From NCBI GenBank assembly GCA_964643995.1, contig CAZXUJ010000001.1:337492-401491 (forward strand): a stretch of 64,000 bases of DNA. Direction: 5' to 3'. A program made the translations under genes and the position numbers. Under the pieces are notes generated by a model that did not search any database, had not been told where the DNA came from, and saw nothing but the letters and a program-made list of their open reading frames with translations. Shown here one piece after another: positions 22,896-38,324 of the stretch. Positions within the stretch are counted from its first letter, which is position 1; each line of letters opens with the position of its first letter. Source of the stretch: an uncultured Candidatus Saccharibacteria bacterium (lineage in GTDB: Bacteria > Patescibacteriota > WWE3 > UBA101185 > UBA10185).

Positions 22896-23480
22896 TTATC
22901 TTGTAGCATTATTGTGCTCCTGTATTACTTCAAGGAATTTTGTTCCCTCTATTATTAGTACGTTTTTAAAGTTTCCTTCTAGCTTTCCGACCTGCTTAAG
23001 ATAATTAAAGTACCTCTTTAACCTATAGAATAGTTGGTATTTGTCCCCTCCGATTGGTAGCACTATTCCTATCTTTCCCATTACAGATGCATTTAATATA
23101 TCGCCAAAAGCACGTTTTGAATCTTTAGTGTTTTCTATTTCTATTGCAATAAAACACCTCGGATTTTTATTTAGGACACTCATAAAATCTTGAAAGCTCA
23201 TGTACTCATGTCCCTCAGCAACATGCGAAACACTATATAATTTTTCTAACAGATCTTTATGAATTTCGACCATTCTCTCAAATTTGTTGTTATTTACTGC
23301 AAGATTTTTGTCTATATTGAAAGGACCTAATGCAATATCCACCCTTGGTGCATAATAATCCCTACTATTAAAGTCATCTAAGCTGTTTTTTGCAGCATTC
23401 CATTCTTTCACAACACTATCCGGTGCATGTATTTTTTTGAGCTCTCCAAGTATTTTATCTGTGTATTCCTTTGTTTTCAT
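22896..23480 (-). CDS. Hypothetical protein with PD-(D/E)xK-like motif, last gene of the defence operon
   Basis: Start is 7 nt downstream of the helicase stop and in the same orientation. RVDIALGPF ... CFIAIEIENTK resembles the D...ExK nuclease core; this is an inference. Confidence 0.45.
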   Translation of the reverse strand: MKTKEYTDKILGELKKIHAPDSVVKEWNAAKNSLDDFNSRDYYAPRVDIALGPFNIDKNLAVNNNKFERMVEIHKDLLEKLYSVSHVAEGHEYMSFQDFMSVLNKNPRCFIAIEIENTKDSKRAFGDILNASVMGKIGIVLPIGGDKYQLFYRLKRYFNYLKQVGKLEGNFKNVLIIEGTKFLEVIQEHNNATR

Positions 23481-23487
23481 AAAACGT

Positions 23488-26034
23488 TTATCTTATTAGA
23501 AGCTTCGAAATTTCCATATATGCAATACTGTCTGGATCGATACTTTCTACTATAGATTTTATATTGATACTTATCTGTTGGTTTTCATCTAAGGATATTA
23601 GGTCGAAAAAATTTTTAAAAATATATTGCGCAGTATATCTAGATAATCCTAAATCCTGCAAAGCAATAATAAACATATTTGTGGTTCCATACTCTATATA
23701 TTTTGCCCAATTAGGACCTGCTTTGTCTTCACCAACAATGTAAGACAATGTTTGATGATAATGGTTGAAGTATTTTTCTAGCGTAAATCTAAGAATGTCT
23801 TCTATGTCGTTAAGAACACCAATTATTATACTGTTTATGTGTTGTTCGTTATTTTTGTCGAATACCCCTACTGGTTGGCCATATTCGTACATGGTTTTTT
23901 CGTTTTCAGAATACCATTTTATTGTGTTTAGAATAATTCTGTTTATGTTTGCTCCTCCTATCCATTGGTTCATTAGTGCCCCGTAGTAGGTTAATTTGTT
24001 ACTATTATCAAAGTTTTTTTCGATATGTTCCAATTGGTATAAGTCATTAAGGTACTTAAGTACATTCATACAAATTGGGTAGTTGATACTTGTTTCTGGA
24101 AGCGTTACAGGGTTACTCTTTATTGTAGTATAAACTTTGTTTTGTATATCAACATCTATCCACTCGTTTGCGCCCAAAATAGTGTATGGTACAACAATAT
24201 CTTTAACCTTTTCTTCTGCGATAGTCAGTATTTTAGATGAGTTATATGTTTTGATTTTATTGAGGGTGTAACTACTTGTTTCTCTCTTAGTTCCTATGGT
24301 GTCTACGCATATTATGTTGCTTATATACTTAATCTGTTCTTTTTCAGATTGCGTGCCGGATATTGGATTACCCTCAAGAACTTTAGTTAGCTTTATTCTA
24401 TTCCTTTCGAGTTTATCAGTTATAGTAGGTTCAACGTTTATATCTTTGGAGGGTGGTTTTTCTAATGATGTATCTTTTTCATTTTGTATGTAGAAAACAT
24501 TACCAATTAATTCTATATTGGTTCTACCAGCTCTTCCAGACAGATTCCAGAAATCTAGTTCATCCAGTTTAGCCAGGCCTTTTTTATTAGATAGAATGAA
24601 AAGATTAGTTGTTGGCAAATTTATACCTTCAAGTAATGTTGACGTAGTGAACATGTACCTAATTTCATTTTGTTTGTATAAATCTTCTATTATTAATCTA
24701 ATCTCTTGAGGTAGTTTTCCATAATGGAAGGCTATACCTAAAGACAAGAATTTTGCTAAGTAATAATCTTTATGAATATATCCTTTTATCTTATCTATTG
24801 CAGATTTTAGTTTTGGACTTGGTTCTACTTTTTCTACACGGCTAACGTACTCCGCCAGTTTCTTTGCATTTTCAACAACAGAGGCTACGGAATGACAGTA
24901 AACTAAACTATTTGAATATTGTCCTATTTTATGTACTAGTTCAATATAGTTGGTTGCAAAGTCATTCAGATTGTCACTAATGCACCTAAACTCCCCCTGC
25001 ATATTTTGATATATTATGTTTTCTTTGAAGTTGATTTTAAAGACATACTGCGAAACCGTGTTTTCATCAATACTAAAAGACTTGCCTTTGTTTTTTGAAA
25101 ATAATTCTAAATAGACATCTGGGTTTTTTACAAAAGGTGATGCAAAGTATAGATTTATTGCTGGAAATCTGTTTATAGCTTTTTCAATTGCTCTAAATGT
25201 AACTATACTCCGCACATCGTTCTTTGTTGTGATCTTATGTGCTTCGTCAACAAAAAGAAAACCCAATGGGGGGTTATTTTCTTTGTTAGCTAAATACCTA
25301 ATTAATCTCTCAGGAGTTAGTACGAGTAACAGATTTGAGTCTTCCTGAGTATTTATGATGGAACTTACACTTACCTTATAATTGAAGCGTTTTAATTCTT
25401 CTCCTAGTGAGGCATTTATATCTTCAACGTACTGATTTATTAGAGCTTTTGTAGGTACCAATGCCACTATGTTTTCTTTAGGTGCATTATGTAACACATG
25501 CCGTATAAAGTTCTTGATTAAAAAAGATTTACCAATTGATGTTGGACCAGAAAAACTAAACATCTTATTGGTAGTTAGCATGTTGTAAATTTTTAACTGA
25601 GTATCTGTAAAATATAAAGATTCTGTGTTAGGTACTGTATTACGAAGTTTCTTATAAGTTTCGTAAATCTCTCTTTCAAGTGGTACTTTTGTGTAATTAT
25701 CTTTTTCTCTTCCTAGTACATTTTTTGCAGGGAAGTTACCTAAGTTCGTAAATGTATTATATATACTTGTATTATGAAATGGATCATTTGAGAGCCTATT
25801 AACAGTAGCGACAATATTTAGCGCAATGTTCCTAAATTGGGATTCTTGAGTTAGAGATAATATATAGGCGCATCTCAACAGAAAGTCAAAATCTAGTTCC
25901 AAGTCACTCACTGATAGTTTTTCCAACTCAAACAGCTTCGAACTATATAGTAATTGCATTTGTTCATAGGCGTTTGTAAATTGCTCACTATTAACAAGCT
26001 CATTGGCCAATTTTTCTGCAACAGTCTTACTCAT
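23488..26034 (-). CDS. SF2 DEAH-box helicase, HamB-like (Hachiman helicase component)
   Basis: Motif I FSGPTSIGKS, motif II LGFLFVDEAHKI, motif VI NLSGRAGRTN, and a C-terminal extension of about 330 aa. Start codon overlaps the stop of the upstream 306-aa gene. Confidence 0.65.
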   Translation of the reverse strand: MSKTVAEKLANELVNSEQFTNAYEQMQLLYSSKLFELEKLSVSDLELDFDFLLRCAYILSLTQESQFRNIALNIVATVNRLSNDPFHNTSIYNTFTNLGNFPAKNVLGREKDNYTKVPLEREIYETYKKLRNTVPNTESLYFTDTQLKIYNMLTTNKMFSFSGPTSIGKSFLIKNFIRHVLHNAPKENIVALVPTKALINQYVEDINASLGEELKRFNYKVSVSSIINTQEDSNLLLVLTPERLIRYLANKENNPPLGFLFVDEAHKITTKNDVRSIVTFRAIEKAINRFPAINLYFASPFVKNPDVYLELFSKNKGKSFSIDENTVSQYVFKINFKENIIYQNMQGEFRCISDNLNDFATNYIELVHKIGQYSNSLVYCHSVASVVENAKKLAEYVSRVEKVEPSPKLKSAIDKIKGYIHKDYYLAKFLSLGIAFHYGKLPQEIRLIIEDLYKQNEIRYMFTTSTLLEGINLPTTNLFILSNKKGLAKLDELDFWNLSGRAGRTNIELIGNVFYIQNEKDTSLEKPPSKDINVEPTITDKLERNRIKLTKVLEGNPISGTQSEKEQIKYISNIICVDTIGTKRETSSYTLNKIKTYNSSKILTIAEEKVKDIVVPYTILGANEWIDVDIQNKVYTTIKSNPVTLPETSINYPICMNVLKYLNDLYQLEHIEKNFDNSNKLTYYGALMNQWIGGANINRIILNTIKWYSENEKTMYEYGQPVGVFDKNNEQHINSIIIGVLNDIEDILRFTLEKYFNHYHQTLSYIVGEDKAGPNWAKYIEYGTTNMFIIALQDLGLSRYTAQYIFKNFFDLISLDENQQISINIKSIVESIDPDSIAYMEISKLLIR

Positions 26035-26954
26035 TACTTAATTTTCCTTATTAATTCTTTTCTTGTATTAGAAATATCCGATAAAGGAATTATGTACAAA
26101 TAAACATTATGAAAGTTTAGCTCTTTATCCTCTAATGCCTTTGCTATAGTTTCTTTTTTTGACAATACTTCATTTTTAATCTGTTCTCTAAGTGCTACAG
26201 TAAATTCCATAGTTCCTTTGGCTTGCATCTCCTCGTCAAAATCTACATTAAACCCTAGTAAAATGCCGAATGCATCATCTGTTGGTATGTTATCTTTTGA
26301 TAATGCGGGAAAGAGTATTCGTTTAACTATTTTGTATTCATTTTCGCTAAGGCACTCTTTTATAAGGTTGGCATTTATTAGCCCTCGTTCATATGAAATT
26401 TTTCCCTCGGACTTTAACAGTTTTATAGACTTTACAGCCTCACTAATTCCACTTACTAGAGACTTGTGCACTTTTGATTCTCCGTAGATAAGCTGGTATT
26501 CCTCCTCCGATATTTTTAATAGATGAATACCATCAGAGCCTTTTACATAATCATTACCGGCTGTTTTTAATTCTAATTTAGAGATAATTTTAGGCGCCTC
26601 TAAATGACTTTCTAAAAAGCAATATAGGAGTAATTCTCCTAGTTCCCCATCATTAGATGCAGCTTTTCGCAGCTTTTCCTTTGCTCTATCATTTAGTTCC
26701 CCAAACCTTCCCTCTTTTACAAAGTTTTCAATTTCTTTTCTAGAAAGTGCATAATTGATCAGATTATTTGATAGCTCTGGTATCAAGGTGTCGTAGTCGA
26801 ATCTACTATTTCTTGTTTTCAAGATAAATAGGTCCAGTTTCTTATTGTCAGTAAGTTGGATCCCTTGTAATTCATGATAAAACAAGTTTAAGAACTCTTT
26901 ACTTGACCGGATCGACTTATTTATAGGATTTGTACCCATAGTTGCATTATACAT
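26034..26954 (-). CDS. HamA-like protein (putative DUF1837-type effector with D...ExK motif)
   Basis: 306 aa, immediately upstream of and translationally coupled to the helicase, in the classic Hachiman two-gene architecture. GSDGIHLL ... IYGESKVHK gives a D141 / E159-x-K161 PD-(D/E)xK-like arrangement. The domain call is an inference. Confidence 0.45.
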   Translation of the reverse strand: MYNATMGTNPINKSIRSSKEFLNLFYHELQGIQLTDNKKLDLFILKTRNSRFDYDTLIPELSNNLINYALSRKEIENFVKEGRFGELNDRAKEKLRKAASNDGELGELLLYCFLESHLEAPKIISKLELKTAGNDYVKGSDGIHLLKISEEEYQLIYGESKVHKSLVSGISEAVKSIKLLKSEGKISYERGLINANLIKECLSENEYKIVKRILFPALSKDNIPTDDAFGILLGFNVDFDEEMQAKGTMEFTVALREQIKNEVLSKKETIAKALEDKELNFHNVYLYIIPLSDISNTRKELIRKIK

Positions 26955-26988
26955 CCAATTAGTGGCTGTATTGAGGTATATTTTAGTG

Positions 26989-28107
26989 CTACTGTGCTTT
27001 TATAAGCATAGTTAGTTTCTCTTCTGTTTCATAACATCTTAATCTGCCACTCAAATATCCAACCCTATAACTAATACCATCGCTCATTAATCTCCAATTT
27101 GTATCCTCAAGGGTTTTGTTCAGAAGTTTTTTAAGCTGTTGTTTGCTGTCATATTCTTCTCTGTCTGATTTTTCATCTTGGGTAATAAAAGGTACAACAG
27201 CGTATTTACCTAATTCTGGCTTCTCAAATTGAAGTTCAATATAGCCTTCTTTTTCCAATGCCTCTTTAACAAGCTTGTTAAGCTCCACGACTTTTAGTTT
27301 TTTAAGGCTCATGGCTTTTTTATAAGCTGGATCTTCCTTCTTTTCTTTGTCTTTTTTTATATCGCTCATAAGATTAGAGAGATTTTCTGACCATAGTACA
27401 GCTTCATTACCTTCCTTTTCATTAAAACAAAATTCTTTTCTAAACTTTTTAAGTAATTCTTTATCTTTTGCTTCCTCTTTTTCCCGTTCTTCTCTCCATT
27501 TTTTATGATCATCAACTTTAACCTCTTTGTAATCGCAACCTGTGCATTTATGTGTCCAAGTAGTTTTATCTTTGTTATCGTCAATCTTTATTGAAACATC
27601 TATCTCAGAGCCACATTTTTCACATAATGTTGGGTTGCTTTCCCAAACTTCTCCATCATCATAATAGGCTTCTCTTTTGTGACATCTTGGGCATTCATAC
27701 ATAAACAAGACTCTAAAATTACTATCTAAACCTCTTTCCCAAGAGTCTTTGCTTATAACATCAAGCAAAACGTCACAGTCTTTGCAGTAGTATTCTCCTG
27801 AATCTGCATTATCATAAGTTTCTTGTTTTGTTCTATCTTTCTCCATCCATTCATTTATTGTTTTTTTCTTGCTTTTAAATCTTGTAACTTTAATTGAATA
27901 CAAGGTCATGTTTATTAAGCGTAACCAGTCATTTTTACGTTTTTCTTCAGAAATATTTTCTTTGTTTGGTAATTTCATTGCTTCGGGTAGCTTTTTGTAA
28001 AGGGCTTGGTAGTAGTCGAGGCATTCTTTGATTGTTACAAGGTCATGGAGATCGATATAGTATTGTTCTGGTTTGATAAATGTTTCAGATTCTAGTTTTT
28101 TTGCCAT
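26989..28107 (-). CDS. Double zinc-ribbon (4x CxxC) protein with Lys/Glu-rich coiled coil, unknown function
   Basis: CKDC, CPRC, CEKCG and CTGC pairs at residues about 108-190 form two C4 ribbons, followed by a KE-rich helix and a C-terminal domain. Start lies 2 nt after the hsdR stop. Confidence 0.5.
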   Translation of the reverse strand: MAKKLESETFIKPEQYYIDLHDLVTIKECLDYYQALYKKLPEAMKLPNKENISEEKRKNDWLRLINMTLYSIKVTRFKSKKKTINEWMEKDRTKQETYDNADSGEYYCKDCDVLLDVISKDSWERGLDSNFRVLFMYECPRCHKREAYYDDGEVWESNPTLCEKCGSEIDVSIKIDDNKDKTTWTHKCTGCDYKEVKVDDHKKWREEREKEEAKDKELLKKFRKEFCFNEKEGNEAVLWSENLSNLMSDIKKDKEKKEDPAYKKAMSLKKLKVVELNKLVKEALEKEGYIELQFEKPELGKYAVVPFITQDEKSDREEYDSKQQLKKLLNKTLEDTNWRLMSDGISYRVGYLSGRLRCYETEEKLTMLIKAQ

Positions 28108-28109
28108 AC

Positions 28110-31100
28110 TTAAGCATTTGCAAAACTAAATTGTGCATTTGCTCTAATCCCTGAAAGTACCCCAAAGATTAAATCTCTTTCTGCGGGCCCAAATACTCCG
28201 TCTATTCCTCGGTCGTCAATAAAGGTGAATGGCTGATCGTATAGGTCACCTGGCTTAACAATTCCAGTAGCAACGATATGATCTATGACTTTATCTAAAA
28301 ACTGCATTTGAGCCGCATTTAGATTATGTTTTTGCATAAACTCACTAAAGGCTGCTTTTGCTATGTCTCTATCCAGTCCAACAAGACTTCGTATAAATTC
28401 TCCAACTGTTTGTCCTTTGAGTGCATTCTCGAACTCAGTTTTATCGATATCATAGTTACTGCTGATTAATAGTGCTTCAATTTCCTGTATATCCATCTGA
28501 TCTAGTTTTTCATTATTCTTAATTTTCTGTATTGCAGATACAAACTCATTTTCTCTAATGATGGATTGCACCCTTTTCAAATAGTTGTCCCTGTTAGGTG
28601 CGTCTTTAACTACCCCACTTGAAGTGACGGTTGAACCATAAATAGTATCCGTAAAGTTTGTGTAGACTGCCTTTCTGTCTGGTGGATCAAGAAGTTTGAT
28701 TAAATCTCGTAAATCCCTACGTATCTCTTCTAGATCTTCGGTAGTTGGATTAGACCAAAAAGCCTCTTCTTTGATTTTGTTTATAGTAGCAATCTTTTCA
28801 GCAACTGCAGGAATATTGGCTTTCTCAAATAGTAGATCTGCTAATGTCATTACTCTTTTCTTGCTATTAGTAAGATTCTTAGATTCTTTAAGTGATTCAA
28901 CTTGCAGATTTAACATGAGGGAATCAAATCTTCTAGCAAATTCATCGTCATCTACGACAAGATTTGAAAATGGAGCAATGTGTTCATTAACATCCAACAC
29001 ATCTTGTTTACTTAGATTTTCCCAACGATCACGACTACTAAATTCATCAATATATCGTTTGTGTTTGCGTAGACTAAAACTCATCGGAGCCATCTGAGTT
29101 ACATCTTCATGTAGGATATTTAACAAGCTAAGTCTAAAGTCTTGCAAAGGTTGATTTTCGCTATACTTTCCTCCTTGTAGTTCATGCGCCAACTCAACTC
29201 GTCTTTCAAAAATCAATTGTGACAGTGGTTTCTGAGTTGAGCCTTTAATCCCCTCAGGATTGACTTTAAAGAATTCAAAATTTCCACAGAAATCAAAAAT
29301 CAAAAATTCTTTCTTATCGCCTTCTGGGCTATCCGGGCCAAACAGTTTTGGACATAAGCGAGTACCACGTCCTATCATTTGCCAGAATTTTGCTTTGGAA
29401 CGAGTAATTTTGAAAAAGACCAAGTTAACAATTTCAGGAATATCTATACCGGTATCAAGCATGTCTACCGAAACAGCAATAAAAGGGCTATCTGGTTTAT
29501 TTTGCTTAAATTCGTCAATTAAGGTATGAGAATAGTCGGCATAGTTATCGATCACTCTTAGTGCTCTGCCACTATAATGTGGGTAATTTTTGTTAAATCT
29601 CTCCTGAATAAACATGGCATGTTCGTGTCTTTTTGCAAAGATGATGGTTTTACCCAACCTATCACCACCTTCAACTTTTATTCCATTTTCCATTAAGTGC
29701 GCTAAAACCTGATCAACAGTATTTGTGTTGAATACCCAATCATTAAATTGAGATGGCGCAATCATCAATGGTAGTTGTCCGTCATCATCCTCAAAGGTCA
29801 TTTCATACATTTCTTTCTCTTCCTCGCTCAATTCGTCATATGTTAGACCTTCTGTTAAAAATTTGAGGGGTACATCAATCTGTTTTGGAGGTACTAAAAA
29901 CTTATCTTCAACTGCCTGATCTAGTTCATATGAATAAGTTGGGTTGTGGTCTTCTAGTCCAAATAATTCATAAGTGTTGTGATCAACCTCAGCTTTTGGA
30001 GTAGCAGTCAAGCCAATAAGTAGTGAATCAAAGTAATCAAAGATAGCACCATATTTCTGATATACACTCCTGTGTGCCTCATCAATGATAATCAAGTCAA
30101 ATCTACCAATACCAAATCTCTTTACTCCATCCTTCTTTGATTCATCAATCATATTCATCATAGTCGGATATGTGGAGAAAACGATGCGAGAAGTTGTATC
30201 TTCCTTTTCTTTGGTGATATCGATTGTAGTGGCTTCAGGATACAAATCATTAAAAGCCTCCTTAGCTTGAGTTAATAGAGCGTTTCTGTCTGCTAAGAAT
30301 AATACGTTTTTAATCCAGCCTTGCTTCATCAGTAACTCCACTAGAGCAATTGAAACTCTAGTTTTACCCGTTCCCGTTGCCATGACTATCAATGATCTTC
30401 TTTCTTTATGTTCTAGTTGTTCCAATACACTTTGGATTGCTAGTTTTTGGTAATACCTTCCAGCAACTTCATCATTGACCTGTGCTTCCAACAAACTCTT
30501 GCGAGTTTTGCGACGATTGATCATTGTTTGAAGCTGATCCTTAGTGTAAAAACCTTGAATAGGTCGCGGCGGATACATATCATCTTCCCAAATCCAATGA
30601 TCATATCCATTGGTATAGAAGATTACTGGCCTTTGCCCGTGTTTCTTTTCCAAGGCGTTTGCATACAGTTCTGCTTGCCTTTGTCCTTTTTGAGCATCAT
30701 GAGTTGTCCGTTTAGCTTCTACCAAACCTACTGGTAAACCATCATCTCCCCATAAAACATAGTCTACGTACCCAATACCTTTGTTGTTGGGCATACCCTC
30801 CACTTCGTATTCAGCTACATTTTCACCTTGTGGATCCCAGCCAGCCTCTTTTAGTAACAAGTCTATAAATAATTCTCTAGTTTCAGCCTCAGAATAGTCT
30901 TTTTGACTAACTTGTTTCTTATTCTTTTCCTTAGTGACTTGTATTTGTGTACGAAGTTCTTTAAGTTCCTCTTCATATTCAACTAACAGTAACTTCTGTT
31001 GTTCAAATTCTTTACCTTGTGAATCGAGCTTATCTTGCAATTGTTGTAGTTCTTCAGCATTTTTATCAGCCTCTCCTTCACGAGGAATAAAGGATTCTGA

Positions 31101-31502
31101 ATATTGCGGCAATTCTGGTTGCTCTTCACTGTATTGCATAGCCATCCATTCGCAGAAGTTGTAGAGATTTCTCAGAGAAGCTAGCGATTCTTTTTCACTA
31201 ATTGGTTTTCGGCTATGAACAGCTTGATTGCCAATTTTGCGGATGTAGTTGATCAAGTGAAAAAGGTTATATGGCAATAATCTTTTGAAACTTGGTTCAT
31301 GCATTAGGGCAGCCAAGTGTGTTTCGTAAGGTTGCTGCAAATCAGAGTCGTGTAAATACAACCAGTTGATGATCAGCTCTACAGTGCGTCGCGCGTAAAA
31401 CACCGAAGTGCGTGGTGCAGTAAACGTATGCTGTTCTGTTTGTAAAGCCTCTTCATAAATCTGCGGCCAGTTATTTTCTAAAAATGTAAAGTTTGATTTC
31501 AT
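28110..31502 (-). CDS. hsdR: Type I restriction enzyme R subunit
   Basis: N-terminal FLENNWPQIYEEALQTE-type domain, PD-(D/E)xK nuclease motif GYVDYVLWGDDGLPVGLVEAKRT, helicase motif I MATGTGKT, DEAH box IIIDEAHRS, and HsdR C-terminal domain; 1130 aa. Confidence 0.85.
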   Translation of the reverse strand: MKSNFTFLENNWPQIYEEALQTEQHTFTAPRTSVFYARRTVELIINWLYLHDSDLQQPYETHLAALMHEPSFKRLLPYNLFHLINYIRKIGNQAVHSRKPISEKESLASLRNLYNFCEWMAMQYSEEQPELPQYSESFIPREGEADKNAEELQQLQDKLDSQGKEFEQQKLLLVEYEEELKELRTQIQVTKEKNKKQVSQKDYSEAETRELFIDLLLKEAGWDPQGENVAEYEVEGMPNNKGIGYVDYVLWGDDGLPVGLVEAKRTTHDAQKGQRQAELYANALEKKHGQRPVIFYTNGYDHWIWEDDMYPPRPIQGFYTKDQLQTMINRRKTRKSLLEAQVNDEVAGRYYQKLAIQSVLEQLEHKERRSLIVMATGTGKTRVSIALVELLMKQGWIKNVLFLADRNALLTQAKEAFNDLYPEATTIDITKEKEDTTSRIVFSTYPTMMNMIDESKKDGVKRFGIGRFDLIIIDEAHRSVYQKYGAIFDYFDSLLIGLTATPKAEVDHNTYELFGLEDHNPTYSYELDQAVEDKFLVPPKQIDVPLKFLTEGLTYDELSEEEKEMYEMTFEDDDGQLPLMIAPSQFNDWVFNTNTVDQVLAHLMENGIKVEGGDRLGKTIIFAKRHEHAMFIQERFNKNYPHYSGRALRVIDNYADYSHTLIDEFKQNKPDSPFIAVSVDMLDTGIDIPEIVNLVFFKITRSKAKFWQMIGRGTRLCPKLFGPDSPEGDKKEFLIFDFCGNFEFFKVNPEGIKGSTQKPLSQLIFERRVELAHELQGGKYSENQPLQDFRLSLLNILHEDVTQMAPMSFSLRKHKRYIDEFSSRDRWENLSKQDVLDVNEHIAPFSNLVVDDDEFARRFDSLMLNLQVESLKESKNLTNSKKRVMTLADLLFEKANIPAVAEKIATINKIKEEAFWSNPTTEDLEEIRRDLRDLIKLLDPPDRKAVYTNFTDTIYGSTVTSSGVVKDAPNRDNYLKRVQSIIRENEFVSAIQKIKNNEKLDQMDIQEIEALLISSNYDIDKTEFENALKGQTVGEFIRSLVGLDRDIAKAAFSEFMQKHNLNAAQMQFLDKVIDHIVATGIVKPGDLYDQPFTFIDDRGIDGVFGPAERDLIFGVLSGIRANAQFSFANA

Positions 31503-32152
31503 AAACTAAATGATTCCACTAATGCAAATAAATTTTTAATAGCAGGATTTTCCGAAAAATAAAAACGATTATCCTCAAGATTCTTTCTGAGAAAGAATTG
31601 ATAATCTACCTCATTCTCTGTAGATATTGTCATCACAAAATCTAGATAGGGATATTTTAACTTAATTTCTTCATCAATCTCATAAGAATCAAGATTTTCA
31701 TCATATCGAAAACCAAATCTTTCTAATAAATTATTCCTATCAACATCTAAGTGATAGGCAAATACTCCAAATAACGGGATATTATCTTTATCCAAGTTTT
31801 TGATAATTTCAGCATCTTCATTTGCCTTTTTAAGATGTTGATTGGTAAGCCTACTTTTTATTTCCAACACTAGTTTGCAATAACGCACATGCATAACAAC
31901 ATTTCTGCTATTCGGTGGATCCAAGGGAGCACTAATTGAACAAAAAATGCTGTCGCATTGGGGACTGTGGGAGTCGTTGTCATTAAATAGTTCACCACTC
32001 TTAACAACTATATTTTTGTGTCGATTTAAAATTAAATCTTTCAAAAAGTCTTCCCTAACTGTTCCTAGGGTTGGTTTATGGATAAACTCACTAGAAACTT
32101 CATATTGAGCTAGAAGAAGTTTTTGATAATACTCAAAAACTGCATTAGACAT
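31499..32152 (-). CDS. Hypothetical protein inserted between hsdS and hsdR (possible D...ExK nuclease-like)
   Basis: 217-aa ORF overlapping hsdS by 8 nt at its start and overlapping hsdR's start (ATGA). QCDSIF ... CKLVLEIKSR gives a D...ExK-like pattern; this is an inference. Confidence 0.45.
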   Translation of the reverse strand: MSNAVFEYYQKLLLAQYEVSSEFIHKPTLGTVREDFLKDLILNRHKNIVVKSGELFNDNDSHSPQCDSIFCSISAPLDPPNSRNVVMHVRYCKLVLEIKSRLTNQHLKKANEDAEIIKNLDKDNIPLFGVFAYHLDVDRNNLLERFGFRYDENLDSYEIDEEIKLKYPYLDFVMTISTENEVDYQFFLRKNLEDNRFYFSENPAIKNLFALVESFSL

Positions 32153-33323
32153 TTAGACCTCCTATAAATGCTTTTTGCAGTAGAGATCTAAATAATATAT
32201 TGGTTACCTCTTTCGAGTTAATCATTGATTTTTTATTATCATCAATTGATTCAATTAACAACCTATACCTAGTCTGTAACTCAATAGGTGGTGTCAATAC
32301 GCTTATTTTTAATAAATTAGTTTGATTAATACCAGAGATTGTTGACTGAGTAATGTAGGGCTTAACATATTTATTTTTTGACCTTGTGTTGTTAAAAAAC
32401 TGCAGTAAATATTCACTATCAATTTTTGTTTGATTGGGTCTCACTCTAATTAGTGAGGATTCAAACACTAAATCATTGTTATCAATATTCCTAACAATGC
32501 TAGCCTTTGCTGCACCTTCAAGAACCAAAGATCTTCGTGCTATTAACAAATCATTATTATTTAATTGGTATTTTTCCAAATCATCCTTTGTTAACTCAAC
32601 AGACTGTTCAACCTCAGGTGTTACAACATCAGAAAATGCATCTGACATATGCACCATGGGAGTTCCCTCAACATTGTATTTTTCTTTTGGTAGGTATAAG
32701 CCATTTTTTGTATCTTCGACCAATTTATCCAAGGTAATCTCATCCCAGTTTTTAGGATTAGAGGCGGGATCTCCAAAAATTTCATAAAAAATAGCCTCTT
32801 TTAGTTCAGCCAATTTTTCAATTGTTTTTTCTCTTTTCTTTTGCATAGCATCGGCCTCGTCCAAAATCTCCACAATTTGCTGTTGTACTTTAAGTTGAGG
32901 AAGGGGGACTTTAATTTTTTTTAAGTATTTAAAATGACGGCTATACCCGTCATTAGGAAGATTTAATGTATGAAAAAAATAGTAGGCATACTTTGGCTCA
33001 ATCTTTTTATTGCAAGAAATAATTTTGGTACCATCTGCCCCAGCCGCAAAATCAAAATCGATATATTTAAACTTTCTAGTGTGATCCCCAAAAATAATTA
33101 GAGGTTGTGATGCTTCAATAATACCAATATTATTGTTCGTATAACCACCTATAAGCTCATCTCCCTGATCAACGATTGGATAAACCCCCTCATCTATATA
33201 AGATGATTTCTTGAACTTTTTTGGAGGTGTGATGGTATCAAACAAGGCATCAAAGGTAGCAATATCCCAAGTATTTGGCAGACTAGAAAATAATGCTGGA
33301 TTTTGAATTACACTATTTATCAT
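32145..33323 (-). CDS. hsdS: Type I restriction-modification specificity subunit
   Basis: Two target-recognition domains separated by the conserved central helix (LPLPQLKVQQQIVEILDEADAMQKKRE), with a conserved C-terminal repeat (LLQKAFIGGL). Confidence 0.8.
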   Translation of the reverse strand: MINSVIQNPALFSSLPNTWDIATFDALFDTITPPKKFKKSSYIDEGVYPIVDQGDELIGGYTNNNIGIIEASQPLIIFGDHTRKFKYIDFDFAAGADGTKIISCNKKIEPKYAYYFFHTLNLPNDGYSRHFKYLKKIKVPLPQLKVQQQIVEILDEADAMQKKREKTIEKLAELKEAIFYEIFGDPASNPKNWDEITLDKLVEDTKNGLYLPKEKYNVEGTPMVHMSDAFSDVVTPEVEQSVELTKDDLEKYQLNNNDLLIARRSLVLEGAAKASIVRNIDNNDLVFESSLIRVRPNQTKIDSEYLLQFFNNTRSKNKYVKPYITQSTISGINQTNLLKISVLTPPIELQTRYRLLIESIDDNKKSMINSKEVTNILFRSLLQKAFIGGLNV

Positions 33324-34840
33324 AGGTTAGTTTTTAATCTCTTTAGACTTTCCTGAATTTCATATTCAATTTTTTCTAAATCCTCAATAATCCTCTTTGG
33401 TTCTTCATATTCCACGTCTTCATACTCAATCTCTTTATACCGATTTATTGAGAGGTCATAGTCATTTTCGCGGATTTCTTTGACTGGCACTACGAAAGAT
33501 TGATCGGTTCTTACCCTGGCTTCTTCATCTTTAAGATTATGATAGCGTTTGATGATATCGGGAGTGTTATTTTCCTCATGTTTTTCAAGATCAAGCTCTT
33601 GGCGTTTATCATCAAGCGAATACCCATCAGCCTTCATGTCATAAAACCAAACGTTATCAGTACCGCCTGAGTTGGTCTTTGTAAACAGAAGCACTGCAGT
33701 AGAAACACCCGCGTAAGGTTTGAATACACCAGATGGCATGGATATTACTCCTTGAAGCTGATGATCATCTATAAGAAGTTTTCTAATTGCCTTATGCGCA
33801 TTGGAGCTACCAAACAACACACCATCGGGAACAATTACTGCGGCACGGCCACCAGTTCTAAGTTGTTGGATAAATAATGCAATAAACAACAACTCAGTTT
33901 TCTTAGTTCGGACAATCTGCAATAAATCATTTGCTACCACTTCATAATCCAACGATCCTTTAAATGGAGGATTGGCTAGAATCACATCATATTTGTTTCT
34001 TGTTTCTGCTTGGCTTTGAGATAGTGCATCCTTGTCAGTCACGTTGGGGTTTTCGATACCGTGAAGCACTAAGTTCATCACAGCAATACGGATCATAGTA
34101 CGATCAAAGTCGTTGCCATAAAACATAGTGTTGTTGAAATGATCTCGCAATTTATCATCAGTAAATATTTCGGGATAGGTATCACGGACATATTCACTAG
34201 CTGCTACTAAAAATCCTCCAGTTCCACAAGCAGGATCCGCAATCTTGTCAGTTCGCTTTGGTTCCACCAACTCAACCATCATTTTAATAATGTGTCGTGG
34301 AGTTCTAAATTGACCGTTTCTACCTGCCGTCGCTATTTTTGAAAGTAAGTATTCGTACACATCTCCCTTGGTATCTCTGTCATGCATCTTGATTTCATTG
34401 AGCATGTTGACGACCTTGTCCAACAGGTTTGGGGTAGGAATCATGAAGGTTGCATCTTTCATGTATTGGGTATAGGTGTCCTCTGTTTTGCCATTTAGGT
34501 TTTTTATAAAGGGAAAAACATCCTCAGAAACAATCTCATACATCTTTTTGGGCTCAAGATCTTTAAACCTAGACCAACGCAGTTGTTGTTGATTATCAGA
34601 AAAGATTGGCTTAGTTATTTCAGTTTTTTGTGCGTTAGCCTTATTTTCACGCAGTGTGTGGATTTCATCTAAACGTTTAATAAAAAGGAGATATGTGATT
34701 TGTTCTATGACTGTTAGTGGATTAGAAATACCACCTGTCCAAAAAGCATCCCATACTCTGTCAATTTCTGTTTTTAATTTTCCTGTTAACATAAGGACAT
34801 TATAACTCGTGATTTTGTTGTAGTCCTGCAATTTATACAA
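33320..34840 (-). CDS. hsdM: Type I restriction-modification DNA methyltransferase subunit (N6-adenine)
   Basis: HsdM N-terminal domain, motif I DPACGTGGFL, motif IV ILANPPFKGS. The stop overlaps the hsdS start. Confidence 0.85.
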   Translation of the reverse strand: MYKLQDYNKITSYNVLMLTGKLKTEIDRVWDAFWTGGISNPLTVIEQITYLLFIKRLDEIHTLRENKANAQKTEITKPIFSDNQQQLRWSRFKDLEPKKMYEIVSEDVFPFIKNLNGKTEDTYTQYMKDATFMIPTPNLLDKVVNMLNEIKMHDRDTKGDVYEYLLSKIATAGRNGQFRTPRHIIKMMVELVEPKRTDKIADPACGTGGFLVAASEYVRDTYPEIFTDDKLRDHFNNTMFYGNDFDRTMIRIAVMNLVLHGIENPNVTDKDALSQSQAETRNKYDVILANPPFKGSLDYEVVANDLLQIVRTKKTELLFIALFIQQLRTGGRAAVIVPDGVLFGSSNAHKAIRKLLIDDHQLQGVISMPSGVFKPYAGVSTAVLLFTKTNSGGTDNVWFYDMKADGYSLDDKRQELDLEKHEENNTPDIIKRYHNLKDEEARVRTDQSFVVPVKEIRENDYDLSINRYKEIEYEDVEYEEPKRIIEDLEKIEYEIQESLKRLKTNL

Positions 34841-35054
34841 TATTAGTTAGCGGTTGCACCCCCTCTTGTCAAGTAGGGGTTGGTTTGACAACTAAAAACA
34901 AGTGTTGTACTTTATAATTATTGAGAGTTGAATAGTAAAAAAATACCTACCTCTTACTTCATAGTAAGCAGGTTATGCTCGATATGTATGGGGCCGAGCG
35001 TTAGGAAGTAATCACTTCGATTATTTTCTGGCGTTCGGCCCTTTTTTTGTTTGT

Positions 35055-36374
35055 ATGAAAGAAGAATTAAAAATAATAAAAGTTAATATTAAGGACTTAA
35101 AAGTTGCAGATTATAACCCTCGAAAGTGGGATAAAACAAAAACTCAAAATTTAAAAGAAAGTATTGGAAAATTTGGGCTAGTTGATCCCTTGATTGTTAA
35201 TTCTGCACCAAGTAGAAATAATGTTGTAATTGGTGGCCATTTTCGCTTACAAGTTGTCAAAGAACTTGGCTATGCAGATGTACCAATTGTCTATTTAAAT
35301 ATTCCAGATATTGAAAAAGAAAAGGAATTGAATGTAAGGCTTAATAAGAATACAGGTGATTGGGATTACAAGTTGTTAGCCGAGTTTGACTCCTCCTTAC
35401 TAGATATTGTTGGTTTTAACAGTGAGGAGCTAGACGATATCTTTGGTTTAGACGAAACCCCAGAAGAGTTTAATCTGCAAAAAGAGTTAGAAAAATTAAA
35501 CATTCAAGAAATTTCTACAGTAGATGGTGATATCTATCAATTGGGTGAACATCGCCTAATGTGTGGTAATTCAACAATAGAAGATGATGTCCTAAAACTC
35601 ATGGACGGCGAAAAAGCGGATATGTGTTTTACAGACCCTCCATATATTCTCGACTATTTGAAAGGTAAAAAGAAAAGCGATAAGGGTTTTGGACTAAAGA
35701 AAAATAGAAGGTATTTAGGTACAGATTCATTGCCTGATGATTTCACTGAATTATGGATGTCAAACATCTCAAAAGTACAAAAGGATGACTTCTCAATCAT
35801 TGTTTTTGAGAATTGGAAAAACATAAGAACTATCTGGGATGCAATGGAAGATTACTGGAAAGTTAAAAACATGATTGTTTGGCATGTTCCAAATAGGACA
35901 CAGGGGTTTTCTGGAAAATACAGATTTTTCTCAAAGCATGATATTGCAATGGTTGGTGCGTCTCCAAATTCTGATATTCCTTTTAATCTAGAAGAAGAAA
36001 TTGAGGGTCTACAAAATGAGTATGAAACGGCACTATATGCAATTTCTGGTAAACCTCATTGGGAAAGTTATAAAAAGGGTAAAAAATACCAACCAACAGA
36101 TTATATTGATCATCCTGTAGATGATGCCAAACATTCAGGACAAGGTATCGTATTTGGTACGAAACCAATAGAAATATTAATTCCCTATATAAAAGTTTTA
36201 ACTAAAAGAAATGATTTAATAATTGAGCCTTTTGGTGGTAGTGGCTCTACTCTTATTGCCTCTACAAAGATGAAAAGAAGATGCTATGTGATGGAAAAAT
36301 CCCCCGTTTATGTAGAAATAATAAAACATAGATGGGAAAAATTGACTGGGCAGAAAGGGGTAAAAATACAATGA
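35055..36374 (+). CDS. ParB-like nuclease domain fused to DNA methyltransferase (phage-type orphan N6A/N4C MTase)
   Basis: N-terminal ParB/Srx fold (KVADYNPRKW..., GGHFRLQVVKELG). C-terminal MTase motifs DPPY (MCFTDPPY) and FGGSGST (IIEPFGGSGSTLIAS). Confidence 0.8.
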   Translation: MKEELKIIKVNIKDLKVADYNPRKWDKTKTQNLKESIGKFGLVDPLIVNSAPSRNNVVIGGHFRLQVVKELGYADVPIVYLNIPDIEKEKELNVRLNKNTGDWDYKLLAEFDSSLLDIVGFNSEELDDIFGLDETPEEFNLQKELEKLNIQEISTVDGDIYQLGEHRLMCGNSTIEDDVLKLMDGEKADMCFTDPPYILDYLKGKKKSDKGFGLKKNRRYLGTDSLPDDFTELWMSNISKVQKDDFSIIVFENWKNIRTIWDAMEDYWKVKNMIVWHVPNRTQGFSGKYRFFSKHDIAMVGASPNSDIPFNLEEEIEGLQNEYETALYAISGKPHWESYKKGKKYQPTDYIDHPVDDAKHSGQGIVFGTKPIEILIPYIKVLTKRNDLIIEPFGGSGSTLIASTKMKRRCYVMEKSPVYVEIIKHRWEKLTGQKGVKIQ

Positions 36375-36778
36375 GCAAATTAATTCAAAAAAGGCAAAAG
36401 CAAGAAAAAGAAGCATTAATAGAACAATTGAAGAAAACCCCAATAATACAAATGGCGTGCAAAAATGCAGGTGTTGGGAGAGCAACATACTATCGCTGGA
36501 GAAACCAAGATTACAAATTCGCACAAAAAGCAGATGAAGCATTAGAAATGAGTGTAAGTCTTATGAATGATTTAGCTGAGTCCCAGCTTATATCAGCAAT
36601 TAGAGACAAAAACATGACTGCAATAATCTTTTGGTTAAAACATAGGCATCAAGGTTATTCCACAAAAGTACTACTTTCTGGCTCCCTTGAGACCTCTATA
36701 AAGCTTTCTCCTGAACAACAGAAAGTATTTAAAAAAGCCGTACATTTAGTTTTTGGTGAGAATTCAGATGTCGAATAA
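36371..36778 (+). CDS. terS: Phage terminase small subunit (HTH-containing)
   Basis: HTH GVGRATYYRWRN and the IIFWLKHRH motif typical of small terminases. ATGA overlap with the upstream MTase; followed directly by terL. Confidence 0.6.
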   Translation: MSKLIQKRQKQEKEALIEQLKKTPIIQMACKNAGVGRATYYRWRNQDYKFAQKADEALEMSVSLMNDLAESQLISAIRDKNMTAIIFWLKHRHQGYSTKVLLSGSLETSIKLSPEQQKVFKKAVHLVFGENSDVE

Positions 36779-38324
36779 TACACGAAAAAAAGACTTAGAT
36801 ATTGTTTACGAAAGAATCCTAAGCGATAAAGCTTTTAGAATTAAGACTACTTCTGAGATGCACAAGTGGTTTTTTGTTACCTATTTTAGTGAATATGCAA
36901 AGTACAAGATTGCCCCTTTCCAAGAAGAAATGTTCAGATTAAGTGAATTGGATGATACTCCTCTAGTTGTTATCGAAGCGTTCAGGGGTTGTGGAAAGAC
37001 AACTATATTAGTTCTTTCGTACATCTTGTGGGCTGTTTTAGGTAGTCAGGGGAAAAAACACATCTTGATTGCTAGTCAAAGCTTAGATAAAGCAATGAGT
37101 ACCTTAAGAGATATAAAGACCATTCTTGAGACTAATAAATTGCTTATAGATGATTATGGGCCCTTTAGAATTCCTCCTGAACCTTGGAAAGAAAAATCGC
37201 TACACCTACCAAAGTATGATGCAAAAATAGTTCCTATTTCAGTGGAAGTAAGTCCAAGAGGCTATATACACAAAAGCAAAAGACCTGACTTAATAATTAT
37301 TGATGACCTCGAAAGTATAAATACCATAAATTCAGTTGAAATGAGAGATAAAGCGTTTAAATGGTACATGGAAGAAGTTGTTCCTAGTGGTGATGTGGAT
37401 ACAAAGATTGTAATAACAGGTAACTTTTTACATTCTGATTCTTTAATAAAACGCCTGCAAGTAATGATTGATAATGATGAGCTTGACGGCATTTATAGGC
37501 GGTATCCTTTTTATGATTCAGATAATAAACCTTTGTGGTTTAGTAAATTTCCTACATCTAAAGAAATCACCGCTTTAAAGAAAAAGGTTGGAAAAGATTC
37601 TTGGCTAAGAGAGTATCTGTTGGAGGATATTCCAGTCGGAACTAGCCCAATAACTAAAAACCTAATCAAGTATTACTCTGATTTACCTACTCAAAACATT
37701 GCCAAACAAATAAAACTACAGTATGTGGGTACGGGAGTTGACCTCGCTATATCCAAACAATCTACTGCACACTACACAGCTATGGTGTCCGTAAAGGTAT
37801 TTTATGTAGGTAACAAAGTTAATGTCTATATCCTTCCAAATCCTATAAACGCTAGATTAACTTTCCCAGAAGCATTCGATACTGTAAAAAGAGTTTCCAA
37901 AGCATTAGATCCAAATGGGGATGCAACCCCAATAATAGTTGAGACCATAGCTTATCAGGAGGCAATGGAACAGGCTCTAGTGCAGGAAACATTTCCTGTT
38001 AAAGGAATAAAACACAATTCGCTAGATAAAATGGCAAGATTAAGTTTAGTTGCAAATTTTATGGCAGACCATAATATCAATTTTCCAACGTCTGGTTCTG
38101 AATTGCTTATTTCTCAACTTTTAGGTTTTGGTAGTGAAAGATACGACGATCTTGCTGATGCTTTCACAATGATCATGACTGAAGTAATGGAAAGATGTAG
38201 TTTTAGACCATACAACTGGGATTACAAACCAAAGCCAGCACCCCCTTCTAAAAGTTTATTTAGTGACTTACATAGAGATATGTCTGATCCTGTAACAAAA
38301 GGACTAATAGACATGAAATTCTAA
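36753..38324 (+). CDS. terL: Phage terminase large subunit (ATPase + nuclease)
   Basis: Walker A-like FRGCGKTTIL, Walker B LIIIDDLE, and a C-terminal RNaseH-like nuclease region (GVDLAIS...DLADAF). Sits downstream of terS. Confidence 0.75.
   Translation: MVRIQMSNNTRKKDLDIVYERILSDKAFRIKTTSEMHKWFFVTYFSEYAKYKIAPFQEEMFRLSELDDTPLVVIEAFRGCGKTTILVLSYILWAVLGSQGKKHILIASQSLDKAMSTLRDIKTILETNKLLIDDYGPFRIPPEPWKEKSLHLPKYDAKIVPISVEVSPRGYIHKSKRPDLIIIDDLESINTINSVEMRDKAFKWYMEEVVPSGDVDTKIVITGNFLHSDSLIKRLQVMIDNDELDGIYRRYPFYDSDNKPLWFSKFPTSKEITALKKKVGKDSWLREYLLEDIPVGTSPITKNLIKYYSDLPTQNIAKQIKLQYVGTGVDLAISKQSTAHYTAMVSVKVFYVGNKVNVYILPNPINARLTFPEAFDTVKRVSKALDPNGDATPIIVETIAYQEAMEQALVQETFPVKGIKHNSLDKMARLSLVANFMADHNINFPTSGSELLISQLLGFGSERYDDLADAFTMIMTEVMERCSFRPYNWDYKPKPAPPSKSLFSDLHRDMSDPVTKGLIDMKF

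Follow-up and report, generated by a model that had tools for sequence, protein, structure and literature searches.

Background

Type I restriction-modification (R-M) systems are among the most studied bacterial defences and are easily beaten by phage anti-restriction proteins; to our knowledge, only two effectors are wired to the core of such a system, the tRNA nuclease PrrC and the membrane toxin RonA. PrrC is unleashed when the T4 protein Stp inhibits EcoprrI, a type IC R-M system, and in the Ronin system HsdMS keeps RonA neutralised until anti-restriction proteins (ArdA, Aop1 or Ocr) set it free (Silas et al., bioRxiv 10.1101/2023.04.06.535777). Here we describe a gene, called X below, that is found, with hsdS and hsdR as its neighbours, in a type I R-M operon on a 64,000-nucleotide stretch (the window) of contig CAZXUJ010000001.1 from an uncultured Candidatus Saccharibacteria bacterium (assembly GCA_964643995.1). 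Judged from its sequence, X encodes a DNase of the NucC family that has lost the receptor for cyclic tri-AMP (cA3) and is a dedicated fourth gene of type I R-M operons, and it probably serves these systems as a dedicated back-up weapon.

NucC is an effector of type III systems of cyclic oligonucleotide-based antiphage signalling (CBASS) and of type III CRISPR systems. As described by Lau et al. (bioRxiv 10.1101/694703), it is a homotrimer in which cA3 is bound by Arg53, Tyr81, Thr226 and the carbonyl of Val227, and in which a gate loop is latched over the ligand by His136 and Tyr141. The ligand-bound enzyme assembles into a hexamer via its alpha0 helices and cuts both DNA strands, with Asp73, Glu104 and Lys106 as catalytic residues; enzymes of this type are nonspecific double-strand DNases and are insensitive to methylation. 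A protein of the Pfam family DUF6602 is also the sole component of Damona, a cassette of one gene that protects against phage and comes from the chromosomal integron of Vibrio cholerae (Darracq et al., bioRxiv 10.1101/2024.07.02.601686).

Both the DUF6602/NucC family and the embedding of genes in type I R-M operons are thus already known, and what is new here is the subfamily to which X belongs and its strict linkage to hsdS. Payne et al. counted 3,231 protein families embedded in systems of the BREX, DISARM and type I R-M kinds, and DUF6602 is absent from their supplements; in the literature searched, we likewise came upon no specific description of a type I R-M operon with a NucC-like or DUF6602 gene in it. 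TgvAB, the Rlo genes of Campylobacter and the HEC and PDC candidates of PADLOC resemble X in being accessory defence genes nested in type I operons, but TgvAB differs from it in being GmrSD-like and acting independently.

A predicted nuclease of the NucC family

X is an open reading frame (ORF) of 217 amino acids (aa) with an ATG start, as given by the ORF list and confirmed by reading the sequence directly (Table 1). The original prediction had called the gene unknown, which turned out to be only partly so: X falls in the Pfam DUF6602/NucC family, of which Damona is an experimentally established anti-phage member, while no description of the subfamily itself was found. The DUF6602 profile (PF20247) matches X with 40.1 bits against a cut-off of 27 (E = 3.6e-10), residues 19-120 corresponding to positions 3-104 of the 104 in the profile. 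Among the PADLOC profiles, 'PD_DExK, Cas-associated' (E = 1.5e-13) and NucC (E = 8.5e-4) match, and no HEC or PDC candidate model of PADLOC v2 does. A sequence search of the PDB with X found Serratia NucC alone (E = 0.034). Moreover, NucC orthologs on plasmids carry the annotation 'DUF6602 domain-containing protein', which equates DUF6602 with the NucC family.

Searched exhaustively with HMMER, a library of 1.8 billion cluster representatives yielded 117 relatives of X at E<=1e-3, about 66 of them at E<=1e-10, for the most part proteins of full length (210-240 aa). In an alignment of 68 homologs, on which all conservation figures given here are based, E34, G53, D67 and K99 are invariant, position 97 is Glu in 63 sequences and Asp in the other 5, and Y8, L13, H25, G30, R33, F131, Y133, F146, G147 and D171 are almost invariant. 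The original prediction had pointed to a pattern, D(66)...E-I-K(97-99), reminiscent of PD-(D/E)xK nucleases. Its E97-I98-K99 was correct, the aspartate is D67 (residue 66 is a Cys), and the suspicion of a nuclease is borne out by the conservation of D67, K99 and the acidic residue at position 97, as expected of a catalytic motif.

The relationship to NucC extends over the whole protein. A single-chain AlphaFold2 model of X, built from the homolog alignment, has a predicted local distance difference test (pLDDT) score of 96.3 and a predicted template modelling (pTM) score of 0.92, and when it was compared with the PDB by Foldseek, the 14 top matches were all NucC (E = 4.5e-12 to 2.6e-9), with template modelling (TM) scores of 0.59-0.73 over ~235 aligned columns; type II enzymes such as BbvCI and SgrAI rank far behind. 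The similarity to the NucC structures (PDB 6P7O, 6P7P, 6Q1H, 6UXF and 7ZGV) thus covers the whole length of the fold, at a TM score of ~0.7, even though the sequence identity between X and NucC is only ~12-19%. In profile comparisons the X family matches Serratia NucC with E = 2.7e-15 and Vibrio NucC with E = 5e-8, and global hhalign alignment of the X family with four NucC orthologs gives a probability of 97.7% (E = 9.4e-12), placing residues 1-217 of X onto residues 6-223 of NucC. In that alignment C-D67...E97-I-K99 of X coincides with D73...E104-A-K106 of NucC, and E34 sits on the first core helix. The two proteins share the DUF6602 domain, an H-x4-G-x3-E motif, a D-x(29-30)-E-x-K motif and the N-terminal alpha0 helix (residues 3-20 in X), i.e. 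the helix used by NucC for hexamer packing. Taken together, sequence and model make X a predicted PD-(D/E)xK DNase of the NucC type, with its putative catalytic tetrad E34/D67/E97/K99 intact.

Embedding in type I R-M operons

X is joined to both of its neighbours. The overlaps described in the original prediction are there in the sequence: the end of hsdS and the start of X have 8 nucleotides (nt) in common, ATGTCTAA, and X and hsdR share 4 nt. The further claim that X is co-translated with its neighbours is strengthened by a GGAGG Shine-Dalgarno sequence 5 nt upstream of the X start, which is made from Gly-Gly codons near the end of hsdS; such a layout, an overlap preceded by GGAGG inside hsdS, is compatible with translational coupling of X to HsdS. 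The same 8-nt overlap between hsdS and X occurs in the homolog loci L002, L011, L031, L036 and L050 and in the contig carrying the homolog P0004, and the 4-nt overlap between X and hsdR has an identical counterpart in L005. A scan of positions 23000-35200 for promoters and terminators gave nothing above shuffled expectation inside the operon.

The host operon is a complete type I R-M system, consisting of an N6_Mtase HsdM (506 aa if the TTG start is used, 490 aa in the Logan gene call), an HsdS with two Methylase_S stretches and an HsdR with both a nuclease motif and a superfamily 2 (SF2) motor. Pfam and, for the nuclease motif, alignment divide HsdR into an N-terminal DUF4145, a D...EAK nuclease motif, an SF2 helicase and a C-terminal EcoEI_R_C domain. 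The nuclease motif, VDYVL...GLVEAKR, is kept in all nine of the X-carrying operons that were aligned, so that X is an addition to these systems and no replacement; the idea that X stands in for a degenerate HsdR nuclease is ruled out by the same nine intact D...EAK motifs. Residues 1-200 of HsdR comprise DUF4145 followed by a Glu/Lys/Gln-rich stretch resembling a coiled coil, ahead of the nuclease domain. A long HsdR (1107-1138 aa) recurs in operons with the order M-S-X-R, and the HsdR of operons with the order R-M-S-X has ~917-949 aa.

Loci carrying X homologs were chosen by sequence only, from exact-sequence look-ups, representative genomes (one per species; 6 loci), metagenome contigs (26 loci), viral contigs (1 locus) and plasmids. 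The representative genomes, metagenomes and viral contigs were searched with an alignment of five X sequences, and flanking ORFs were scored by phmmer with HsdM, HsdS and HsdR probes. After X copies more than 90% identical had been collapsed, 40 loci were left, which together with one contig available as a gene table only make 41; since these loci are phylogenetically related, they do not amount to 41 independent events. A type I R-M gene cluster surrounds X in all 41. X comes directly after hsdS in 29 loci and directly after an hsdM::hsdS fusion in 6, and in these 35 the gap upstream of X is -23 to +13 nt, bar one locus in which the ORF caller ran X into hsdS; in one further locus hsdS and X are 155 nt apart. 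Five loci are left: two other genes separate hsdS from X in L003, the gene before X is hsdR in L015 and hsdM in L045 and L047, and L049 is on a contig that breaks off a short way upstream of X. The operons come in three layouts (M-S-X-R, R-M-S-X and R-M::S-X), and hsdR was found in every locus with sufficient flank. The constant neighbour of X is the specificity module, not hsdR.

The hosts include Paenibacillus, Brevibacillus, gammaproteobacterial metagenome-assembled genomes (MAGs), Paceibacterota, Omnitrophota, a Rickettsia MAG, a Shewanella plasmid and one viral contig. The search of plasmids returned only three X homologs, all of them distant. In a rough neighbour-joining tree, drawn without support values, the three layouts are interleaved and the X clade stands apart from NucC. 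Two findings had been named that would speak against the original prediction, namely a structure without a nuclease fold and homologs lying away from R-M genes; the fold predicted by AlphaFold2, Foldseek and hhalign is the NucC-like PD-(D/E)xK fold, and the 41 loci are without exception type I R-M operons, so the prediction stands on both counts.

Some of the loci have additional or altered genes. In L039 (3918-6104), a 728-aa P-loop ATPase with a CPFC motif, RloC-like by eye, is found between X and hsdR, and in L044 (3480-4950) a pair of ORFs of 342 and 149 aa takes this place. In L021 (7305-8586), from a Rickettsia sp. MAG, hsdS is cut to 223 aa and X is split into ORFs of 148 and 75 aa, and hsdR and hsdM look intact; here the S-X module appears, from its sequence, to be decaying in an obligate intracellular bacterium. 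The L003 locus has the order hsdM, hsdS, a SLFN_AlbA_2 gene, a further gene and then P0147 (6145-7188), which is an X homolog minus its last helix fused in frame to EcoEI_R_C, the C-terminal domain of HsdR. Such a fusion may have arisen by deletion, or it may hint at a docking site that X shares with HsdR. As proof that X docks on the methyltransferase it has been down-weighted, because a deletion between X and a downstream hsdR would give just such a fusion; it was found on a single contig, and the last helix of X is missing from it.

The embedding invites the interpretation that X is an integral extra nuclease subunit, which docks on the methyltransferase core or on HsdR and helps to restrict unmodified DNA, e.g. 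by shredding DNA after the first HsdR cut or by cutting near the recognition site. Adjoining operon genes often code for interacting subunits, and X has a fixed place after hsdS, is translationally coupled to it and is accompanied by hsdR in every locus with enough flank. The P0147 fusion points the same way, given that EcoEI_R_C binds the methyltransferase in characterised type I enzymes. Against this, the HsdR nuclease motif is intact in nine of nine operons, so the enzyme misses nothing; type I systems in their great majority do without X; its closest relatives are no R-M subunits but nonspecific suicide nucleases with an allosteric switch; and the fusion, known from one contig and lacking the last helix of X, looks as a deletion would make it. 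We consider a subunit role of this kind improbable.

Loss of the cyclic tri-AMP site

It is in the elements that bind the ligand that X departs from NucC. The position of NucC Arg53 is N47 or a gap in X and is occupied by Asn, His, Ser, Asp or Lys in the family, with Arg in none of the 68 homologs; the position of Tyr81 is A75 in X and Ala, Thr, Ser or Cys in the family, with an aromatic residue in one of the 68. Over NucC residues 131-146, i.e. the gate loop with His136 and Tyr141, both hhalign runs place a gap of 16 residues in X, and the spacing between K99 and F131 is 28-36 residues in 66 of the 68 homologs. The C-terminus of X corresponds to residue 223 of NucC, so that the tail with Thr226 and Val227 lies beyond it, and in all X is ~25 residues shorter. 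Since X is without Arg53, Tyr81, the gate loop and Thr226/Val227, we take it for a NucC-family nuclease but not for a cA3 receptor; no recognisable cA3 site can be read from its sequence.

The genes around NucC and X differ as well. True NucC orthologs adjoin CBASS-type genes, in one case a cyclase with Cap7 and Cap6, and the neighbours of others are an AAA ATPase, a pair of ThiF and Mov34/JAB genes and a nucleotidyltransferase. X, in contrast, is found in type I R-M operons and is paired with a cGAS/DncV-like nucleotidyltransferase (CD-NTase) or Cas10 in none of the 41 loci. In L015 (Shewanella xiamenensis plasmid pNUITM-VS2_1, 4930-7665), X follows hsdR and is itself followed by a CD-NTase with an AGS-C sensor and then by a Cap15-like effector; this CBASS has an effector of its own and is therefore complete without X, which rules out X as the CBASS effector of that locus. 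One could nevertheless imagine that X is an effector of the true NucC type and that a cyclic oligonucleotide from a CBASS or type III CRISPR system elsewhere in the genome activates it in trans, and the full-length homology and likeness of fold of X to NucC, together with the CD-NTase gene that comes after X in L015, could be cited for this. However, every known cA3 contact and the gate loop are missing, the L015 CD-NTase has its own Cap15-type effector, no cyclase lies beside X in the other 40 loci, and no CBASS or Cas10 family was seen among 25 of the 33 PADLOC families matched in a scan of 55 ORFs from the window. Activation in trans is thus very unlikely, and X as cA3-activated NucC proper is ruled out by the missing ligand contacts and gate loop and by the lack of a linked cyclase.

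Selection and exchange

X is a genuine gene and not a chance ORF, because it has 117 cluster representatives, a model with a pLDDT of 96 and a ratio of nonsynonymous to synonymous substitution rates (dN/dS) of 0.07-0.12. That ratio was obtained from homolog pairs in which dS is unsaturated; for the same pairs HsdM and HsdR gave 0.02-0.05. X is thus under purifying selection and functional, and its rate of evolution is 2-4 times that of HsdM or HsdR. The window and L005, for instance, are 37% identical in X, 75% in HsdM and 62% in HsdR. In the close clades formed by L016, L017 and L018 and by L007 and L008, X co-diverges with HsdM and HsdR. In L039 and L044 the HsdM proteins are 97% identical (dS 0.32) while the X proteins are 77% identical (dS 1.3), and because HsdM is nearly identical there and X has diverged, this pair suggests that X, perhaps along with the variable hsdS, can be exchanged by recombination independently of hsdM.

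Such a history raises the question of whether X might be selfish, be it as a homing endonuclease that stands alone and has the 3' end of hsdS as its target, or as an addiction toxin by which the R-M island is stabilised. The distribution of X over type I systems is patchy, operon types are interleaved on its tree, it has been inherited in a mosaic fashion, and it is always found inserted at a site of the same kind; these observations speak for a selfish element. The gene is, however, translationally fused into the operon instead of having expression signals of its own, it has been under strong purifying selection over deep divergence and co-diverges with HsdM and HsdR in the two close clades, and the 3' ends of hsdS and the downstream genes vary between architectures, so that no common homing site is evident. 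We also know of no homing enzyme with the trimeric NucC fold. For either version of the selfish element, we see hardly any likelihood.

A possible guardian of the type I core

An enzyme of the NucC type is nonspecific and insensitive to methylation and so must be kept latent, and with the nucleotide switch gone, the most economical control would be by a protein encoded next door. X has the genomic signature of PrrC and Ronin, near-exclusive embedding (41 of 41 loci) being the signature reported for PrrC, and on this ground we favour a model in which X would act as a back-up or guardian effector that is held by, or assembled with, the M2S1 core, is activated when the R-M core is inhibited and brings about abortive infection by destroying DNA. 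By analogy with these systems, we judge the chances of this model to be about even. X would be made in step with HsdS as a latent, largely sequence-nonspecific DNase, and the HsdM2-HsdS core would hold it in check or assemble with it. A phage anti-restriction factor (e.g. a DNA mimic of the Ocr/ArdA type) that disables or occupies the core would unleash X, and the unleashed X would degrade DNA, so that the infection is aborted. The trimer-to-hexamer switch of NucC would, in X, be controlled by a protein partner instead of a nucleotide.

The two systems that inspire this model differ from X in their effectors. PrrC resembles X in its place between hsdS and hsdR, in its near-exclusive embedding and, on the model proposed here, in being a latent nuclease effector, but the two are unrelated in sequence and fold, PrrC being an ABC-ATPase with a tRNA(Lys) anticodon nuclease and X a small PD-(D/E)xK DNase; Pfam, the model and Foldseek assign the whole of X to the PD-(D/E)xK fold and reveal in it no ABC-ATPase or anticodon-nuclease domain. 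In Ronin, hsdS and hsdM are constant close companions of the effector gene, as the specificity module is of X, and the logic of release is that of the model proposed here; RonA, on the other hand, is a 61-aa membrane toxin in systems that usually lack hsdR, whereas X is a predicted DNase beside a complete R-M system with an intact hsdR. X may thus work like PrrC or Ronin though it is a member of neither family.

A more specific version of the proposal would make X a previously undescribed and widespread fourth subunit or guardian of type I R-M systems, in which the nucleotide receptor has been replaced by control through HsdM2-HsdS, anti-restriction is the trigger and a hexamer destroys the DNA; this we put forward tentatively, its chances being less than even. 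If true, no DNase guardian of type I R-M systems would have been known before X, nor any enzyme of the NucC family whose switch is a protein partner and not cA3, and such a guardian would span Bacillota to bacteria of the candidate phyla radiation. Next to PrrC and RonA, a conserved DNase that is found across phyla and strictly tied to hsdS would be a third solution, and a more widespread one; from it one could learn how NucC, an immune nuclease gated by a signal, can be rewired once its ligand pocket has been lost. The four-gene operon would also offer a simple cassette for a direct test of the idea that bacteria guard the restriction enzyme. A practical use would be that genome annotation gives these 'DUF6602' genes a name and that tools for finding defence systems score them jointly with their R-M operon.

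Several points weigh against the guardian model. The physical tie of X to HsdM and HsdS is inferred from adjacency and translational coupling, which are equally compatible with mere co-expression, and the single fusion of X to the HsdR C-terminal domain in P0147 could be an artefact of a deletion and not evidence of docking. The relatedness of the 41 loci reduces the weight of their agreement, and the model of X is monomeric, so that the evidence of the fold covers a single chain. Many of the R-M-embedded genes that have been tested (TgvAB, BrxU, HECs) act independently of the host system, and Damona, itself a DUF6602 protein, protects when cloned alone (Darracq et al., bioRxiv 10.1101/2024.07.02.601686).

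These last two facts lead to the main alternative, namely that X, like Damona, is a defence nuclease which consists of one gene and works autonomously: it would sense a phage cue itself, act independently of HsdM, HsdS and HsdR and share the R-M operon for co-transfer and co-expression only. The Damona cassette confers phage resistance alone, the embedded TgvAB and BrxU work independently of their host system, and unrelated accessory genes have also settled at the site between hsdS and hsdR (the RloC-like gene of L039, the 342- and 149-aa ORFs of L044 and the SLFN_AlbA_2 gene of L003); inheritance that is mosaic relative to hsdM, as in L039 and L044 (dS 0.32 for HsdM and 1.3 for X), also speaks for this view. 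Compared by description, Damona and X share DUF6602 and secondary matches to the Cas-associated PD_DExK and CBASS endonuclease profiles. They differ in where they are found, in that Damona is an integron cassette that outside integrons is reported mainly from prophages, whereas X is embedded in R-M operons and had no match in 50,697 phage genomes. If X were a defence of this kind, its distribution would be unusual: independent systems are mostly found outside their occasional host (Payne et al. give single embedded instances against hundreds to thousands of non-embedded ones), while X is embedded in 41 of 41 loci, almost always right after hsdS, and this in three layouts. Autonomous action is possible, but in our view less likely than a guardian role.

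Other features of the region

The coordinates of X, of its operon and of the neighbouring features are given in Table 1. The operon sits in a low-GC chromosome with housekeeping genes. Downstream of it lies a complete Hachiman system (23488-26954, minus strand), and R-M operon and Hachiman together form a defence island.

Table 1. Position of X, its operon and the surrounding features in the window
Feature	Position	Strand	Description	Evidence
X	31499-32152	-	217 aa, predicted NucC-family (DUF6602) PD-(D/E)xK endonuclease	ORF, Pfam, PADLOC, AlphaFold2, Foldseek, hhalign
hsdS/X junction	32145-32162	-	GGAGG at 32162-32158, X ATG at 32152-32150, hsdS TAA at 32147-32145	sequence reading
X/hsdR junction	31499-31502	-	ATGA, X stop TGA (31501-31499) over hsdR ATG (start 31502)	sequence reading
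hsdS	32145-33323	-	type I specificity subunit, 392 aa	Pfam Methylase_S 7.2e-24, two stretches
hsdM	33320-34840	-	type I N6-adenine methyltransferase, 506 aa	Pfam N6_Mtase 1.2e-73, HsdM_N 1.4e-20
hsdR	28110-31502	-	type I restriction/translocase subunit, 1130 aa	Pfam
372-aa protein	26989-28107	-	several CxxC zinc-ribbon motifs; start 2 nt past hsdR stop	no Pfam family
HamA	26034-26954	-		PADLOC HamA1 5.7e-102
HamB	23488-26034	-		PADLOC 9.8e-246
Hairpin	34993-35039	+	20-pair stem (7 G-C pairs), then T run; intergenic, between hsdM and the ParB-methyltransferase gene	
ParB_N-methyltransferase	35055-36374	+	fusion of ParB_N and N6/N4 DNA methyltransferase; divergent from hsdM	
HTH_Tnp_1_2 protein	36332-36778	+	divergent from hsdM	
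523-aa ORF	36753-38324	+	divergent from hsdM	no Pfam match

The 372-aa zinc-ribbon protein encoded just after hsdR belongs to a family of at least 467 clusters, most of the matches listed being 40-65% identical to it, and those of its members that bear names stem from Patescibacteria and Levybacteria MAGs, on which ground the host of the operon is probably a bacterium of the Patescibacteria (candidate phyla radiation). At other loci, X has no such companion. On the other side of the operon, the three genes that diverge from hsdM (35055-38324) may be the remnant of a mobile element. A similar ParB_N-methyltransferase gene is located ~5 kb from the X homolog P0004.

Elsewhere, one of the 55 window ORFs scanned matches the Pfam family NpmA, of 16S rRNA (adenine1408-N1)-methyltransferases, with E = 7.7e-52. 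Characterised members of this family confer aminoglycoside resistance.

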